Source of the DNA: Escherichia phage vB_Eco_F27
Length of the DNA: 64,000 nucleotides
Strand: one strand, 5' to 3'
Sequence record: OP870146.1
Part shown: positions 24,971 to 31,523 of the stretch, in pieces
Position numbering within the stretch: the stretch's first letter is position 1
Layout: each line of letters begins with the position of its first letter
The notes under the pieces: generated by a model
Database searches by the model: none
Seen by the model: only the letters and a program-made list of their open reading frames with translations
What the model was told of the DNA's origin: nothing
Translations under genes and position numbers: made by a program

Positions 24971-25519
24971 TTAACGAGCCCATTTGATAATTTCTGTAAT
25001 CAAATAATTACGTTCGCTTGCATTAAATCCTATAACTTTGTTAGCACCATCATGATTAAGTAATTGATACGTTTGGATTTTGTTATGAATTGCAAACTCT
25101 TCAAAATGTGAAATGACTGTATTAAAACCGAATGAAGACAAAGTAATAAGGTCGTCTTCAAAACTTTCAGTCATTTCGTTACGTGTTAAAATAATTGTGA
25201 ACACATCATGGTTTTGGCAAAGACGAACATAATCCTGCTCATAAACATCAAGAACAGAGTCCGCATCTTGTCGAATACGTCCATAAACCCAGTTACTAAT
25301 ATATCCACGGTCTAACAGATAAATCTTAGTAGGGTCTAAATAATTCAACATCGTTTCGAAACAACCAACTTCGTTTCGAGACTTAACATCGAAACGTCCA
25401 TCAACCGTTCGTTTAGGGAAATCAATCTTTACATATCTTTCACTAATTTCCATTATGTCATTAATGAAAGTTGTTTTACCAGCATTATCCGGGCCATCTA
25501 CTAAAATAATTTTAGCCAT
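24971..25519 (-). CDS. P-loop nucleotide kinase, thymidylate-kinase-like
   Basis: Walker A ILVDGPDNAGKTT; LLDRGYISNWVYG resembles Tmk DRY/S motif; occupies the slot where T4 has beta-gt. Confidence 0.55.
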   Translation of the reverse strand: MAKIILVDGPDNAGKTTFINDIMEISERYVKIDFPKRTVDGRFDVKSRNEVGCFETMLNYLDPTKIYLLDRGYISNWVYGRIRQDADSVLDVYEQDYVRLCQNHDVFTIILTRNEMTESFEDDLITLSSFGFNTVISHFEEFAIHNKIQTYQLLNHDGANKVIGFNASERNYLITEIIKWAR

Positions 25520-25520
25520 T

Positions 25521-26420
25521 TTATTCCTCGATTACAACATCTTCGTATTTAGGTATATTATACGGTGAAGAAATTAAAGCATTAAAGTAGATGAACTCAC
25601 CAAGACCTGGATGGAATACTTCTTCAGGATTTTCGAAATATTGAATCTTCGGACGTCCTTTAAGAATTTGATAGTACTCAGTTTTAGTTGGTTTAAAAAT
25701 TCGAATCAACGCTTCTTCAGGATACTTATTTCTGTCGAAGCTATTATTTGGATCGGTTATATAAAGCGGTTGACCTAATTGAATTGCGCATTCAACCACT
25801 TGTTCAAAACGATAGCATGGGTCACTAATTCGAAATGGATGAAAAATACCATCTAGATGAATAGGAGCCAAATCACCTACAAGACGCTGCATGATGGAAG
25901 GACGTATAACTTTCTGCGTTACGATAATCTTATTACCATCTGCACCAGCGTTAACCAGCACTTCTTTTTGACGTTCATTCAACACAGTAGTTTGAAGTGA
26001 ACGATTAACCGACAACATATCGGTTTTTAAGAATTCGTCAATATAAAAACGTGGTTTATTAGGGTCTGCAGTGATATTGAAATTGAATTCCACATCAAAA
26101 GCGCCGTCATATCCAGTGATATCTGTGATTAGAAAATCACAATCATAATAAGCAATTAATGAATCAACCACAAATTCATTTTCAGACCAGAAATATTTAC
26201 GAGTGTTATACGCGTTATCTTTATACCATAATGGAACAAACTTAAATTCTGGGAAAAGACGTTCACATTCTTTAATATCAGATGCATTACGTGGATATGT
26301 AATCACATCACCCGGATTAGCACGGTGCAAATGAAGTTGGAAGTTGCCATCCTTAAGGATAGCATACTGTCCAGTTTCATAAGACCGCATACTCAAAATA
26401 GGTACGCGGAAAATAGCCAT
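25521..26420 (-). CDS. hypothetical protein (candidate modification enzyme)
   Basis: 299 aa, no recognisable motif; in operon with gene 42 and Tmk-like kinase. Confidence 0.45.
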   Translation of the reverse strand: MAIFRVPILSMRSYETGQYAILKDGNFQLHLHRANPGDVITYPRNASDIKECERLFPEFKFVPLWYKDNAYNTRKYFWSENEFVVDSLIAYYDCDFLITDITGYDGAFDVEFNFNITADPNKPRFYIDEFLKTDMLSVNRSLQTTVLNERQKEVLVNAGADGNKIIVTQKVIRPSIMQRLVGDLAPIHLDGIFHPFRISDPCYRFEQVVECAIQLGQPLYITDPNNSFDRNKYPEEALIRIFKPTKTEYYQILKGRPKIQYFENPEEVFHPGLGEFIYFNALISSPYNIPKYEDVVIEE

Positions 26421-27136
26421 TAGTCAAGGAATCCTTTAACATAATCAAAATCACGTTCAAACACATGGGCACTTACCATGGTATGAGTATAATCACCAAC
26501 TTCTACACCGCATTCGTTAGCGATATAATGAAGTAATTTTCCTTGGAGATAAAAATCCAACTGCATAACAACAGCACAGTTCTGAGAACGCATATGACAA
26601 TGGGTATAAAGCTTACCATCACGAATATAATAAGTCACTGAGTCAGTACATGGATATTCAAGCGTTTCGTCTGAATCAAGCAAAGCCTGATCAGAACTTT
26701 CTAGAATTTGGAACACAACTCTTCGGGAGTTAGGCTTCTCTTTAAGTTCTTTTAGAAGAGCTGGTAATTGGGCCGCAATGCGAGGACCATAGAAAGTGTT
26801 GAAGTTCGCCGGCAAAACATCTGATTTTGGTTTAGAAATAAATTTAGCGACATTAGGATATGCCTTAAACGCTTCTTCTGCGTTGGTACCACCAGAAATC
26901 ATAAACTTCCAGAAGTCTTCGGCATATTCATAAGAGATGCGGTTAATACGTGGGTCGGTCATTTTGAATGATGATGGAGTGTCAACAACTACTGTCATAG
27001 ACCCAATTTCATTACAACGTCCAATACGAGAATCAGTTACGAATTCCGGGTTTTCTAAAATTTCACGATTGACTGCTTTAAATGCGGTTTGAAAATCTGC
27101 GGCTTTGATATATTTCATTGTGTTATGTTTTCCCAT
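26420..27136 (-). CDS. 42: dCMP hydroxymethylase (thymidylate-synthase superfamily)
   Basis: PCTDSVTYYIRDGKLYTHCHMRSQNCAVVM...HTMVSAHVFE matches the TS-fold active-site block (catalytic Cys, MRS, D); 238 aa close to T4 gp42 size. Confidence 0.8.
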   Translation of the reverse strand: MGKHNTMKYIKAADFQTAFKAVNREILENPEFVTDSRIGRCNEIGSMTVVVDTPSSFKMTDPRINRISYEYAEDFWKFMISGGTNAEEAFKAYPNVAKFISKPKSDVLPANFNTFYGPRIAAQLPALLKELKEKPNSRRVVFQILESSDQALLDSDETLEYPCTDSVTYYIRDGKLYTHCHMRSQNCAVVMQLDFYLQGKLLHYIANECGVEVGDYTHTMVSAHVFERDFDYVKGFLD

Positions 27137-27178: not shown

Positions 27179-27418
27179 TTATTTGAATTTCTTGACAATG
27201 TTGATATAACGTAAAGCTTCAGCATCGATACTTCCAAGAACACTATGAAGAAATGCATCAGCGTAGTATTCCAATTGAACAGGTTCTTTAATCACTTTAG
27301 CCGCTTTAGTTTCAAACAGGCCCATCAGGGCCTTTTTAAGAATTTGTTCATTAGTGTTCAGTTTAATAGTCAAAATCTCTTCATTAAGTTGGTGGTTAAA
27401 AGTTTTTCTAGAAATCAT
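27179..27418 (-). CDS. hypothetical protein
   Basis: 79-aa ORF between Cys-rich enzyme and gene 42. Confidence 0.45.
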   Translation of the reverse strand: MISRKTFNHQLNEEILTIKLNTNEQILKKALMGLFETKAAKVIKEPVQLEYYADAFLHSVLGSIDAEALRYINIVKKFK

Positions 27419-28575
27419 TCCGGGTACCTCAAAGCGTCATCAGAGTTAGTTATATCAATAATAGATATAGAGTTTTCTGCTAACCCGTTTTTAGATAATT
27501 GACGTTTATAATATCTTTCACAATATGTACACGTCGTCCCGCAGATTTCATTAGCACAATCGAAATCTGGATGTCTGAACCACCTTTTTTCTAAAAAGCC
27601 ATCTAACAAAGAGGTTTCAATATTTACTGTATGTGAAAACTCGGTCTCATTTTCAAGAGTGAAAATAGTCTCTAAAGGCTTCCACAGTTCTAACAAATTA
27701 CCTTCAAACTTTTCAGAAGCGTATGCTTCAAGAACTTTCAAAATGTAGTCTGTGCTACCTGTACGTCCTGAAACTTTGAATTGAGTGATACCAATATCAT
27801 TATAAAGTTTCAAATCTTGAGGACGAACAAAACGAGTTCTCAACCAGTTAAATGGGTCTGTATCACGAGCTTTAATGCAGTGTTGCATTGGGTATCCGTT
27901 TAAGGATTTAGCATCATCAGCTGTAACATCAGTACTATGGAAAATATAGCAAGAGTCACGATAGCTACAATGTGTTGTATACCCTTTACCAGCATTAGAA
28001 CAGAACTCATTTACAAGAACTTCAAATATTATATTGTTCTTATTGCAAAACTCTGCTGCACGCTTCAGGAAAGAAACTGAACGGTTCTTATGAATTCCAC
28101 AGCAGACCTTTTTGATATTATATTGGTCATGCAAGTATTTGATTTGAGTTACAGCATCGACATGTAGAATTGTTGAAACTTCAATCTCAATGTCTTTATT
28201 GACTTCACGAACAATTTCCATAACAACAGGGTTAGCGATAGTAATACGCCATACGCCTATTGACCAAAGATACTGAACATAATCCTGAATAGCTTTCTTC
28301 TTCCACTCAACTAGTTCTCTTTTTGAACCAGGATTTATCGTGTTGAGTGTATAGTTAAAGCAAATACCTAATTCGTTACAACGTTTAACGTAATCTTCTA
28401 ACATCTTTTTGTCAACGTCAGGAAGCCTAAAATCAGGTCTGGCTGCTACAAAAGCCATTTCTCTTGTAGAGCCGTATACTTCGTTTATCAAGCTATTAGG
28501 ATAAGTTTTATTGAGCTCTACGATTTTATCAAGAAGAGCTAAATCAAAATTCGTTCCGATTTTAAAAGTATTCAT
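27415..28575 (-). CDS. Cys-rich hypothetical enzyme (possible Fe-S/metal cluster protein)
   Basis: 386 aa; FCSNAGKGYTTHCSYRDSC and C-terminal CANEICGTTCTYC (Cx4Cx3Cx2C); faint resemblance to peptidase-U32/TIM-barrel family. Confidence 0.45.
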   Translation of the reverse strand: MNTFKIGTNFDLALLDKIVELNKTYPNSLINEVYGSTREMAFVAARPDFRLPDVDKKMLEDYVKRCNELGICFNYTLNTINPGSKRELVEWKKKAIQDYVQYLWSIGVWRITIANPVVMEIVREVNKDIEIEVSTILHVDAVTQIKYLHDQYNIKKVCCGIHKNRSVSFLKRAAEFCNKNNIIFEVLVNEFCSNAGKGYTTHCSYRDSCYIFHSTDVTADDAKSLNGYPMQHCIKARDTDPFNWLRTRFVRPQDLKLYNDIGITQFKVSGRTGSTDYILKVLEAYASEKFEGNLLELWKPLETIFTLENETEFSHTVNIETSLLDGFLEKRWFRHPDFDCANEICGTTCTYCERYYKRQLSKNGLAENSISIIDITNSDDALRYPE

Positions 28576-28634: not shown

Positions 28635-29036
28635 TTATAGATTCGGTTTATATGATTTAAATGTTTCGAATTCGCCTTTATTCATAAGAGCTTTGAATTC
28701 GTCAGGACGCATAGCTTTGTCGTCGATAATCCAATCATATACTGGTTTATGTGTTAGCAAATTATGGTACTTCAAGCCAATGTTTGCCAAGTTCTGAATC
28801 AGACTTGGGAGAATGTCAATTGCTATACGACCAGGACCTACTGACTTCATACCGCGAGCAGTGTAAAGCGTTATGGTATGCCCTGCATCATACAGAGCAT
28901 TAATGGCAGACACCATTTCGACGTCTGGTTTGAAGTTCACGTAATCACGATTGTTATTCCACTCTGTTATACAATCATCGACATCAAAACAAAGATTAAG
29001 CATGTTTTCTACACGGTGCATTAGATTCGTTCCCAT
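28635..29036 (-). CDS. small HAD-family phosphatase, KdsC-like
   Basis: Motif I FDVDDCIT (same spacing as KdsC FDVDGVLT), motif II TLYTAR, Lys and terminal DD motifs. Confidence 0.6.
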   Translation of the reverse strand: MGTNLMHRVENMLNLCFDVDDCITEWNNNRDYVNFKPDVEMVSAINALYDAGHTITLYTARGMKSVGPGRIAIDILPSLIQNLANIGLKYHNLLTHKPVYDWIIDDKAMRPDEFKALMNKGEFETFKSYKPNL

Positions 29037-30706
29037 TGATGAGTGATATCGCCACCGATTGGACGATAGGAAACACCAGTTTCTTTATCAGTTAGTACCC
29101 ATTTACCAGGATTTTTTGTAATCAGAGTAGCCGTTACAGGTTCTGCTACGTCATAACTAATAGAGCCGTCTTGAAGTACACGGCCCATATTACGTAATTG
29201 CTTAGTCAGAAGTTCCATACCTTTATAATATGCGGCTACCGCTTTAAGTGGATTATTCTTGAAATAACCACCTAATGCAATCCAGATAATTGCCACTGCC
29301 AAATGATGATACTCGTTAAACGAACTCATCTTTCCATATTTGTAAACTAATGGATTGATGTTAATAGTCACATTACAAGTTGTTTCATCAATAGTAAACT
29401 GTCCCCAGGTCGGATTAGCGTTGAATTCATCATAACCTGAAACAGCATAAAGCACTTTAGCTTCATCATACAATTTTGGCCCGTAAATCTTTGTTTCGCC
29501 AAAATATCCACGAGGGTCGATAAATTTGACTTCGCCGTTATCAGTAATCATAGTATTACTGAAGTTCGGGTCACCATGAATAACAGAGTACTGTCCCTGA
29601 GAACGGTTATGATAACGAATAAGGTGTTCTAAAGCTTGTTTCAGCATTGGCTTCAGACGTCCAATCTTAGTGTAGTTCACATGTGTGATTTTACCAAATG
29701 AATCAATCAATGGTTGAATGCTTTCACAACGATCAATAACTTTCGTATAGAATTCTTTAGTGAAATCACGACGAACAGTTTCAGGACTTACAAAATAAGT
29801 GTCTGTGCTGAATTTCAGTGCATCTAAAATTGCATCAACAATTTGTGGACGAGCAAGACTTGATTTGGATTTAATATATTCAAATGCCGGCTTACCTTTA
29901 ATGCGTTCCATTTCAAAGTTATTTTCATTAACAGAAACTAACTGAGGGACTGAATCTGATTTCACTTTCAAATACCACGAAATCTCATCTTTCTGAAGAG
30001 CTCGGCCCTGTTCGGTTAATGCGAATTTAGTTACAGTTTCTTCACCAATTTCAACTGCATTAAAACTACGATTAAGTTCACGAACTTCATGAGCTTTTTC
30101 AAGTTTAGGCATATCACCTAAATCAATTAGATTCATAAGCTCTGATTTATTGAATGCGCTGGCGTAAAGGAATTCTACGAAATCACGTCCTTTGCAGTAT
30201 TCATGAATTTCCTCATCGGTAGAACCCATATAGAATTCCCAGTCTTTGAACTGATAAATTCCTACAACATTACCACCTGTTGAACCTACGTTAGTGATAT
30301 TTTCACCGTCGAAATTATATCGACATTCGTCACCCTTAACATAGATTGCGTTAACATTCCAAGACCATGAACCAAAATCAGGAATAATATCACACCAGTT
30401 AACAATTACGTTATGGCCGTCTAAATCTTTGTGTAATTTAGCAAGAGCATAAGCAGAACCATACGCTTCATCAACTGTACGAATAGTCACATTGAACCCT
30501 TCTTGCTCACAATAAGCTCGAACAGTTTCAGCAAATTTTGAATGAACTACTACAATAATTTCATCTGCGCCAAGGTCAGAATAAATTGTATACAAATTGC
30601 TCAGAATAGTGTCTTGTTTATAGTTAACAAGCACCTTAGGAATATGATGCGTTATTGGATATAAACGAGTTGCCAATCCAGCACCAAGAATAACAGCTTT
30701 TTTCAT
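29021..30706 (-). CDS. bifunctional sugar-1-phosphate nucleotidyltransferase / APH-type sugar kinase
   Basis: N-terminus ILGAGLATRLYPIT..PKVLV (RmlA/GlmU-type G-x-G-T-R-L); C-terminus HGDPNFSNTMITDNGEVKFIDPRGYFG (APH/choline-kinase Brenner and DFG-like motifs). Confidence 0.7.
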   Translation of the reverse strand: MKKAVILGAGLATRLYPITHHIPKVLVNYKQDTILSNLYTIYSDLGADEIIVVVHSKFAETVRAYCEQEGFNVTIRTVDEAYGSAYALAKLHKDLDGHNVIVNWCDIIPDFGSWSWNVNAIYVKGDECRYNFDGENITNVGSTGGNVVGIYQFKDWEFYMGSTDEEIHEYCKGRDFVEFLYASAFNKSELMNLIDLGDMPKLEKAHEVRELNRSFNAVEIGEETVTKFALTEQGRALQKDEISWYLKVKSDSVPQLVSVNENNFEMERIKGKPAFEYIKSKSSLARPQIVDAILDALKFSTDTYFVSPETVRRDFTKEFYTKVIDRCESIQPLIDSFGKITHVNYTKIGRLKPMLKQALEHLIRYHNRSQGQYSVIHGDPNFSNTMITDNGEVKFIDPRGYFGETKIYGPKLYDEAKVLYAVSGYDEFNANPTWGQFTIDETTCNVTININPLVYKYGKMSSFNEYHHLAVAIIWIALGGYFKNNPLKAVAAYYKGMELLTKQLRNMGRVLQDGSISYDVAEPVTATLITKNPGKWVLTDKETGVSYRPIGGDITHQWERI

Positions 30707-30747
30707 GTTGAAGTCCTCATTGGTAAGTAGGAGTATTGTACACTATT

Positions 30748-30891
30748 CTAGTTAAAGCATTCATACTTTGCTTGTAGTCCAATCATAATCCATCCAATTA
30801 CAAGTGTTGGAATCATTACTGGAGCCGTTAAGCTCCAGTAGATAGTCATGACAAGCATCAATAGTAAAAGTCCTATTGTTATTGCTTTCAT
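30748..30891 (-). CDS. small membrane protein
   Basis: 47-codon ORF not in track (MKAITIGLLLLMLVMTIYWSLTAPVMIPTLVIGWIMIGLQ...); ATGA overlap with SIS gene stop. Confidence 0.4.
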   Translation of the reverse strand: MKAITIGLLLLMLVMTIYWSLTAPVMIPTLVIGWIMIGLQAKYECFN

Positions 30892-31523
30892 TGCTCGCCT
30901 CGTAACATGGCACCTAGTGCACCACCTGGATGGAACTTAAGGAAATCATTAGAGGTAAATCCACGTTCAGACGAAAGGTTGATAGCAAACGTATCGATAA
31001 GCGCTAACAACAATGTAGTGGACATAGTCGGAGCCAGAGAATTCTCATCAACCTCTACTGCGATGCCTGCACAGAAAGAATAATCAAAAAGGGCTTCATT
31101 TTCTTGTGGAATGTCCGGGTTACAATGCAACAGAATCTGTTTGACGTTCGGTCGAATCATTTTAAGATGCTTAGCCACGCCTATCATTTCTTCAGTTTTA
31201 CCAGAACGACTAATATGAATCAACACGTCATTAGGCGCAATAAATCCTGCATCACCGTGAGAATAATGCCCAGTGTTCAAGTACATACTCGGGATACCGA
31301 GTGAAGCAAATGTCTCAGAAGCTTTAGTTGCAATATTAGCATTCTTACCAACACCTGTAATAATTACACGACTTTCATAATTACTCAGTCCCGGGCGTCG
31401 AAGAGTTTCTAGAATAGCATTATAACGAGCAGGGTTTTGACTAATTACTTTGGCCATAGCGGCCAAAGAAGAAGCTTGTTTTATGATTGCGTCAATAGCG
31501 ATAGTAATAGGAGTAGTTTTCAT
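30888..31523 (-). CDS. SIS-domain sugar-phosphate isomerase, arabinose-5-phosphate isomerase (KdsD/GutQ)-like
   Basis: VIITGVGKNANIA ... HGDAGFIAPNDVLIHISRSGKTEE ... APTMSTTLLLALIDTFA ... FHPGGALG match SIS motifs. Confidence 0.75.
   Translation of the reverse strand: MKTTPITIAIDAIIKQASSLAAMAKVISQNPARYNAILETLRRPGLSNYESRVIITGVGKNANIATKASETFASLGIPSMYLNTGHYSHGDAGFIAPNDVLIHISRSGKTEEMIGVAKHLKMIRPNVKQILLHCNPDIPQENEALFDYSFCAGIAVEVDENSLAPTMSTTLLLALIDTFAINLSSERGFTSNDFLKFHPGGALGAMLRGEQ

Follow-up and report, generated by a model that had tools for sequence, protein, structure and literature searches.

A fused nucleotidyltransferase-kinase gene of Escherichia phage vB_Eco_F27: a probable AfhE ortholog for the supply of activated D-arabinofuranose

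Introduction

Escherichia phage vB_Eco_F27 carries, between the genes for DNA polymerase (gp43) and UvsX, a gene for a protein of 561 amino acids (aa) that joins a sugar-1-phosphate nucleotidyltransferase domain to a small-molecule kinase domain. The stretch analysed here, referred to as the window, comprises the 64,000 nucleotides (nt) of this phage in sequence record OP870146.1. The locus raises the question of which sugar the fused protein activates, and whether its two domains act in direct succession. As set out below, the gene is very probably the Mosigvirus ortholog of afhE, and would supply the donor from which arabinose is transferred to 5-hydroxycytosine in phage DNA.

The DNA of phage RB69 carries beta-D-Araf-(1-3)-alpha-D-Araf (Araf, arabinofuranose) on 5-hydroxy-deoxycytidine (Lee et al., NAR 2026, PMC13326640). 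According to the same source, 5-hydroxy-dCMP is made by the thymidylate-synthase homolog gp48, the transferases of phage DLP3 use uridine diphosphate (UDP)-Araf in vitro, and the proteins AfhE and AfhF of phage HY126 are equated with RB69 gp52:53 and gp51. As He et al. are cited there, HY126 AfhE is a D-arabinose-5-phosphate 1-kinase as well as a pyrophosphorylase for UDP-D-arabinose; it phosphorylates Araf 5-phosphate (Araf5P) to the 1,5-bisphosphate (Araf1,5P), and AfhF dephosphorylates afterwards, being a Mg-dependent phosphatase that removes the 5-phosphate of the bisphosphate (PMC13326640). The equivalents of AfhE are RB69 gp52:53 (also ORF53_52c), DLP3 gp82 and Thanatos TH1_060.

UDP-D-arabinofuranose is not a normal metabolite of E. 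coli, so the phage needs a pathway of its own to hypermodify its cytosines. DNA modified with arabinose is shielded against restriction enzymes, CRISPR-Cas and DNA glycosylases. This bears on phage therapy and on the engineering of phages, and the pathway offers enzymes for making UDP-Araf; this significance has already been described for RB69, HY126, Bas46/47 and DLP3. The gene itself is also known. Attention was drawn to it in 2018, domain-wise modelling and assignment to the pathway followed in 2025-26, and a 97%-identical ortholog has been characterised biochemically, by the account cited above. Architecture, folds, catalytic residues, synteny and orthology are from the present analysis; for substrates and products we rely on published work with the HY126 and RB69 orthologs, partly as cited second-hand. 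The practical value of the assignment lies in correcting labels ('GlmU', 'hypothetical protein', PHROG 'unknown function') and in recording the substrate order.

The gene and its orthologs

The gene lies on the minus strand, as do all the long open reading frames (ORFs) of the window (~37% GC), and its 561 codons run uninterrupted from ATG to TAA; the plus-strand translation of 29021..30706 has no open frame and many stops. At this GC content ~7% of random codons are stops, so a run of 561 stop-free codons would arise by chance with a probability of ~1e-17 by our arithmetic. The ORF is conserved in full length across 364 phage records. In a megablast search, ~150 Escherichia and Shigella phages carry the gene at 95-99% nucleotide identity; they belong to the RB69-like genus Mosigvirus, as does the window. 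Its stop codon overlaps the start of the next gene, encoding a HAD phosphatase, as TAATG (read from the sequence). A scan for promoters and terminators gave sites no more numerous than in shuffled sequence.

The protein is an exact match to GenBank QHR68268.1 of phage moha, where it is labelled 'bifunctional protein GlmU'. Other GenBank and PHROG labels for it are 'mannose-1-phosphate guanyltransferase', 'hypothetical protein' and phrog_4098 'unknown function'.

The RB69 reference record (NC_004928) divides the gene between ORF052c and ORF053c, and a DNA alignment with the window gene shows that RB69 has an additional C at gene position 655. With this C removed, the window protein and RB69 ORF53_52c are identical at 558 of 561 residues (99.5%), the differences being H92Y, A182G and Q233H. 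The extra C thus reproduces the RB69 sequencing error noted by Thomas et al. (2018), who defined ORF53_52c and suggested that it takes part in making UDP-arabinose (PMC6024577). The glycosyltransferase ORF046c/047c, also split in that record, is a single 299-aa ORF in the window.

In HY126, XAN60479.1 (562 aa) is the sole transferase-kinase gene in a cluster with the same gene order as the window, and it is 97% identical to the window protein (544/562). From this position and architecture we infer that XAN60479.1 is the AfhE of HY126. The adjoining HAD protein of the window is identical to PDB 9iqw over all 128 residues, and the thymidylate-synthase homolog matches PDB 9iqc at 233 of 238 residues; the 9iqc sequence is itself 100% identical to a protein in GenBank PP658200.1, from Escherichia phage HY126. 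The entry 9iqw was deposited as 'Capsule biosynthesis protein', a misleading name.

The window and HY126 proteins differ by 18 substitutions and a 1-aa indel, and 13 of the 18 substitutions fall at aa 228-265. DNA identity drops to 64-86% in a ~180-nt patch (gene nt 631-810) compared with ~98% elsewhere, which looks like a recombination mosaic in the N-lobe of the kinase. The patch spares all invariant residues, including K227 and E241 (see below).

Domain architecture and catalytic residues

An AlphaFold2 model built with an alignment of 41 homologs gave a confident two-domain structure (predicted local distance difference test, pLDDT, 92.6; predicted TM-score, pTM, 0.89). The N-terminal domain (aa 1-212) scores 39.1 bits against the Pfam family NTP_transferase (PF00483; cut-off 21.2) over aa 3-99. 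It carries the motif ILGAGLATRLYPIT at aa 6-19 and, with it, the signature G-x-G-x-x-T-R-L-x-P-x-T (LGAGLATRLYPIT...PK24). Residues G10, R14, K24, G83, D106, D195, G197, D198 and K201 are invariant in the 41 homologs, down to 29% identity, and D106, D195 and D198 are predicted to be acidic metal ligands by analogy with RmlA. In Foldseek comparisons with the PDB the modelled domain shows a Rossmann-like GT-A fold and retrieves RmlA, GalU, LicC, MurU and HddC (E ~1e-8, target TM-score up to 0.69), and also GDP-mannose pyrophosphorylase. The best PDB match of the family profile is the heptose-1-phosphate guanylyltransferase HddC (E 5e-14), aligned to this domain, and the top 60 profile matches are transferases only. 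Matches to NCBIfam models are confined to the first ~110 residues and all lie far under the cut-offs.

The position aligned to the uracil/thymine-reading Gln of RmlA and GalU varies within the family. The domain is predicted to be a uridylyltransferase, with the UDP specificity taken from the literature.

The kinase domain (aa 213-507) belongs with the APH/choline-kinase type, i.e., the small-molecule kinases with a fold like that of eukaryotic protein kinases. Its catalytic loop H-x-D-x4-N corresponds to H377-G-D379-PNFS-N384, within the motif HGDPNFSNTMI (aa 377-387), and is followed by the Mg-binding Asp D397 in IDPRGYFG (aa 396-403). The beta3 lysine is K227 (strand 224-229) and the alphaC glutamate is E241 (helix 232-247). 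K227, E241, G378, D379, N384 and D397 are invariant in the alignment, and H377 is kept in 40 of the 41 sequences; R399, K417 and K488, downstream of the loop, are also invariant and basic. A separate AlphaFold model of aa 210-561 (pLDDT 94.4) has APH(2'') as its top Foldseek match, followed by choline/ethanolamine kinases and macrolide kinases. The bilobal kinase fold is nearer to small-molecule kinases (choline kinase, APH, sugar kinases) than to protein kinases, and the Pfam family APH (PF01636) is among the precomputed matches of several homologs.

The last 54 residues (aa 508-561) form a beta-rich tail. The 23 closer homologs (at least 35% identity) have this tail; they make up the phage-type half of the family with the T4-like phages, in which it is conserved. 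It is missing from the 18 more distant homologs and from the four-domain fusions described below. This phage-specific tail might serve as a dock to which the phosphatase binds when the bisphosphate is passed on.

A sequence search of the PDB with the whole protein returned only relatives of the N-terminal domain and no solved AfhE, and Foldseek found no PDB structure spanning both domains.

Much of this agrees with the initial annotation, which had predicted the 561-aa product (strand unstated), quoted the three motifs located above, and proposed an APH-like rather than a GHMP kinase; no GHMP match was found in the protein. Its N-terminal nucleotidyltransferase of ~230 aa was right in fold and family and somewhat too long (~212 aa), and its C-terminal kinase of ~300 aa had the correct fold and omitted the tail. 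It had also considered that the C-terminal half might model as a protein kinase, which the predicted structure does not bear out, and its caution that nucleotide specificity cannot be read from the sequence is borne out by the variable Gln position.

The gene cluster and a proposed route to UDP-D-arabinofuranose

The gene stands in an AfhE-type cluster between DNA polymerase and uvsX, with an arabinose-5-phosphate isomerase, an AfhF HAD phosphatase, a 5-hydroxy-dCMP synthase and a glycosyltransferase (Table 1). Every gene of the cluster is encoded on the minus strand, and overlaps of 1-4 nt connect most of them. The isomerase matches the NCBIfam models KpsF/GutQ (E 2e-32) and KdsD (E 8e-31), staying under both full-length cut-offs because it is without the CBS part. 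The label 'phosphoheptose isomerase' that RefSeq and PHROGs give to the HAD protein is wrong, the protein being a HAD-type phosphatase. The 299-aa putative arabinosyltransferase has no Pfam or NCBIfam match.

Table 1. Coordinates of the afhE-type gene, its parts, neighbouring genes and comparison loci. Rows without a locus name refer to the window.
Feature	Position	Strand	Basis or remark
afhE-type gene, bifunctional kinase/nucleotidyltransferase, 561 aa	29021..30706	-	ATG at 30706, TAA 29023..29021
N-terminal domain (aa 1-212), sugar-1-phosphate nucleotidyltransferase, predicted UTP:Araf-1-P uridylyltransferase	30071..30706	-	PF00483, invariant residues, Foldseek
Kinase domain (aa 213-507), APH/choline-kinase type, predicted arabinose-5-phosphate 1-kinase	29186..30070	-	
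C-terminal tail, 54 aa (aa 508-561), beta-rich	29024..29185	-	pLDDT 71-85, no family match
Mosaic patch (aa 228-265)	29912..30025	-	
Shine-Dalgarno-like GAGGA	30714..30718	-	7 nt 5′ of ATG, read from sequence
SIS-domain D-arabinose-5-phosphate isomerase (RB69 gp55), ribulose 5-phosphate to arabinose 5-phosphate	30888..31523	-	Pfam SIS; PHROG 'arabinose 5-phosphate isomerase'
47-aa hydrophobic ORF between isomerase and afhE	30748..30891	-	conserved, phrog_3610
HAD-type phosphatase AfhF (RB69 gp51), 128 aa	28635..29021	-	9iqw identity; NCBIfam EcbF-BcbF capsule phosphatase E 4e-13
Peptidase_U32-family protein (RB69 gp50)	27415..28575	-	Pfam U32 E 7e-11
79-aa ORF (RB69 ORF049c)	27179..27418	-	overlaps U32 stop by 4 nt; phrog_8601
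Thymidylate-synthase homolog, 5-hydroxy-dCMP synthase (RB69 gp48)	26420..27136	-	Pfam Thymidylat_synt; 9iqc 233/238
Putative first DNA arabinosyltransferase, 299 aa (RB69 gp46:47)	25521..26420	-	RB69 synteny; assignment from PMC13326640
P-loop nucleotide kinase, thymidylate-kinase-like, 182 aa (RB69 gp45)	24971..25519	-	phrog_761 thymidylate kinase, RB69 annotation
RB69 NC_004928, split afhE-type gene	L005 5595-7281		
RB69 NC_004928, split glycosyltransferase ORF046c/047c	L005 2098-2998		
Four-domain fusion P0084 (fusions 890-1010 aa)	L002 8001-10781		
Four-domain fusion P0089 (fusions 890-1010 aa)	L006 10001-12862		
Fusion, first of two paralogs on one contig	L007 1727-4144		
Fusion P0117, second paralog	L007 10001-12679		
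U32/chorismate mutase comparison locus	L008 4483-5894		

The proposed route would begin with the SIS isomerase, encoded two genes upstream, turning ribulose 5-phosphate of the host into D-arabinose 5-phosphate. The C-terminal kinase domain would then use adenosine triphosphate (ATP) to phosphorylate the anomeric C1 hydroxyl, giving D-arabinofuranose 1,5-bisphosphate, from which the HAD phosphatase, product of the downstream gene that overlaps afhE, would take off the 5-phosphate to leave Araf 1-phosphate. In the fourth step the N-terminal domain would convert Araf 1-phosphate and uridine triphosphate (UTP) to UDP-Araf and pyrophosphate, and in the fifth the phage glycosyltransferases would move Araf onto 5-hydroxycytosine in the DNA. 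With the kinase domain at step two and the transferase domain at step four, the two halves of the protein would catalyse non-consecutive steps. The 5-phosphate would block O5 during phosphorylation at C1, so that the pentose could not close as a pyranose and a furanosyl 1-phosphate would be guaranteed. The four activities have been fused independently in other proteins (see below), which argues for a functional link among them.

The initial annotation had guessed D-arabinose as a substrate, in agreement with the AfhE and RB69 literature as cited above. Its proposal that a single polypeptide takes a free sugar to a nucleoside diphosphate (NDP)-sugar differs from what is reported: in the account of He et al. 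in PMC13326640, the kinase makes arabinose 1,5-bisphosphate, on which a separate phosphatase works before the transferase step.

Weighing of the alternatives

Several points weigh against the route proposed above. The substrate order rests on a single secondary source, PMC13326640, and Table 1 of that source itself reads 'dephosphorylates Araf5p to Ara' and 'phosphorylates Ara to Araf1p'. The protein variant of the window departs from the characterised HY126 protein mainly in the N-lobe patch of the kinase. In the window protein the Pfam kinase families stay under threshold (APH 14.4 versus 23.2 bits, Fructosamin_kin 17.1 versus 22.4, EcKL 16.2 versus 22), these matches and one to RIO1 lying around aa 344-409.

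The alternative that survives best is a free-sugar route, in which the HAD phosphatase (or salvage) would supply free D-arabinose, the kinase would phosphorylate C1 and the transferase would follow directly. The table just quoted gives these roles for RB69 gp51 and the C-terminal domain of gp52:53, and the APH-fold anomeric kinases that the C-terminal domain resembles (NahK, maltokinase and MTR kinase) take non-phosphorylated sugars. The same four activities are needed in either case, so neither synteny nor fusions discriminate between the routes. Free D-arabinose is mainly a pyranose, as a matter of general chemistry. The sugar found in the DNA is nevertheless a furanose (PMC13326640), and the text of that paper, citing the HY126 biochemistry, has AfhE convert Araf5P to Araf1,5P before AfhF acts. 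The invariant basic residues R399, K417 and K488 would also fit a phosphorylated substrate. Taken with these points, the free-sugar route is unlikely.

A different sugar or nucleotide in vB_Eco_F27, such as a donor built on xylose or a deoxypentose, or one that is linked to GDP or CDP, is very improbable. The sequence does not reveal the nucleotide, CTP- and GTP-specific enzymes (LicC, HddC) are among the best matches of the N-terminal domain, and activated xylose was speculated on in the Thanatos paper for its 54%-identical homolog. Against this, D-arabinofuranose is found on the DNA of RB69, whose protein differs by three residues, and of other Mosigviruses; the adjacent isomerase is of the KdsD/GutQ arabinose-5-phosphate type; and transferases of a related phage accept UDP-Araf in vitro (PMC13326640). 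That the database names are right after all, i.e., a GlmU-like enzyme, a mannose-1-phosphate guanylyltransferase, or an antibiotic or choline kinase as the C-terminal half, is effectively refuted by the domain content, for all that GenBank uses the first two names and APH(2'') heads the structural matches of the C-terminal domain.

Comparison with known systems

The closest parallel to the AfhE-type route proposed here is the ADP-L-glycero-beta-D-manno-heptose pathway of HldE, GmhA and GmhB, said to have been described by Kneidinger and co-workers in 2002. The order there is GmhA, HldE kinase, GmhB, HldE transferase. Both systems would use a SIS isomerase, an anomeric kinase yielding a bisphosphate, a separate HAD phosphatase and a nucleotidyltransferase as the last enzyme, and in both the kinase and transferase share one polypeptide despite acting at non-consecutive steps. 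A heptose enzyme, HddC, is moreover the best PDB profile match of the window N-terminal domain. The parts themselves differ: HldE has an N-terminal kinase of the ribokinase (PfkB) fold and an adenylyltransferase of the cytidylyltransferase fold, whereas the window protein has a C-terminal kinase of the APH/choline-kinase fold and a transferase of the RmlA type. The sugar is a heptose with ADP or GDP in one case, and a pentose with UDP in the other.

The pairs AmgK-MurU (recycling of N-acetylmuramic acid) and LicA-LicC also combine a kinase of the APH/choline-kinase type with a minimal RmlA-like nucleotidyltransferase on one small molecule, and LicC, MurU and LicA are among the structural matches of the window protein domains. 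The LicCA fusion of Treponema denticola even has the same transferase-then-kinase order. These kinases, however, take unphosphorylated substrates, the steps are consecutive with no phosphatase between them, and sequence identity to the window protein is 12-20%.

The bifunctional L-fucokinase/GDP-fucose pyrophosphorylase (FKP), the parallel drawn in the initial annotation, holds for the domain order (pyrophosphorylase N-terminal, kinase C-terminal), the salvage-type character and the NDP-sugar product. It fails in that FKP has a GHMP kinase, not homologous to the kinase half here, and turns free fucose into a GDP-sugar in consecutive steps; it is a weaker parallel than HldE/GmhB. With GlmU the window protein shares the N-terminal nucleotidyltransferase fold and nothing further, having a kinase as its C-terminal half in place of the left-handed beta-helix acetyltransferase domain; the GlmU models of NCBIfam reach ~22 bits over aa 3-106 against cut-offs of 367-505.

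Wider family and giant-virus-like fusions

A search with the kinase domain alone against 1.84 billion cluster representatives gave 1269 relatives at E ≤ 0.001, 449 of them at ≤ 1e-10. Layouts were tabulated for the 149 best representatives. Of these, 85 have the two-domain layout (460-620 aa, with a kinase that begins no earlier than residue 180), 12 consist of a kinase alone (~300 aa), and 14 are long forms of 880-1011 aa with the kinase at the C-terminus, in the domain order HAD, SIS, transferase, kinase.

The contigs with long fusions look like those of giant viruses. They carry MutS (MutS7) with HNH, a single-gene Rpb2, RNA_pol_N, a 1553-aa B-family DNA polymerase and a ubiquitin hydrolase, and glycosyltransferases, epimerases and a sulfotransferase adjoin the fusion genes. 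One contig has two paralogs (Table 1), and one further four-domain member, P0091, is from a eukaryote transcriptome. The HAD domain of the giant-virus-like fusions is of the beta-phosphoglucomutase type. Judged from its domains, a four-domain fusion could take ribulose 5-phosphate through the four steps that lead to an NDP-pentofuranose. A fusion from Butyrivibrio is ordered differently, with SIS at the C-terminus (Thomas et al. 2018, PMC6024577), so the four activities have been fused more than once. No mention of the four-domain fusions was found in the searchable literature.

The transferase-kinase pair may be the core of a portable viral sugar-activation cassette reaching well beyond the T4-like phages, although we regard this as rather doubtful. 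If true, giant viruses would be expected to have glycans of the arabinofuranose type, or even modified DNA.

The U32 gene and small ORFs of the cluster

The U32-family gene next to the phosphatase gene is strongly conserved: 221 phage records contain it at 82% identity or more, while the AfhE homologs of the same phages are 43-72% identical to the window protein. All 13 cysteines of the U32 protein are kept in comparison with Klebsiella phage KLB31, and a PDB search found no sequence relative at E ≤ 1. Directly downstream of the U32 gene, a type II chorismate mutase (CM_2) is encoded in Kanagawavirus and in relatives of Edwardsiella phage PEi20; the KLB31 counterpart of the window 79-aa ORF is a CM_2 protein (E 1e-9), and an Erwinia phage record has a 'putative chorismate mutase' at the same position. 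For the 79-aa ORF of the window itself, neither Pfam nor BLASTP nor a profile-profile comparison gave any sign of a chorismate mutase.

Among the members of the U32 family are hydroxylases that depend on prephenate and work independently of O2, such as RlhA (5-hydroxycytidine in rRNA), TrhP and UbiU/V. The pairing of a U32 gene with chorismate mutase suggests a possible anaerobic back-up hydroxylase, i.e., an O2-independent route to 5-hydroxycytosine. The known phage 5-hydroxy-dCMP synthase requires O2 and flavin, and gp50 is listed only as 'sugar or heterocycle reductase' (PMC13326640).

The 47-aa ORF is very hydrophobic and sits amid the genes of a cytoplasmic sugar pathway. It is also annotated in phages mobillu, HY126 and KLB31, the KLB31 record carrying a transmembrane-domain note.

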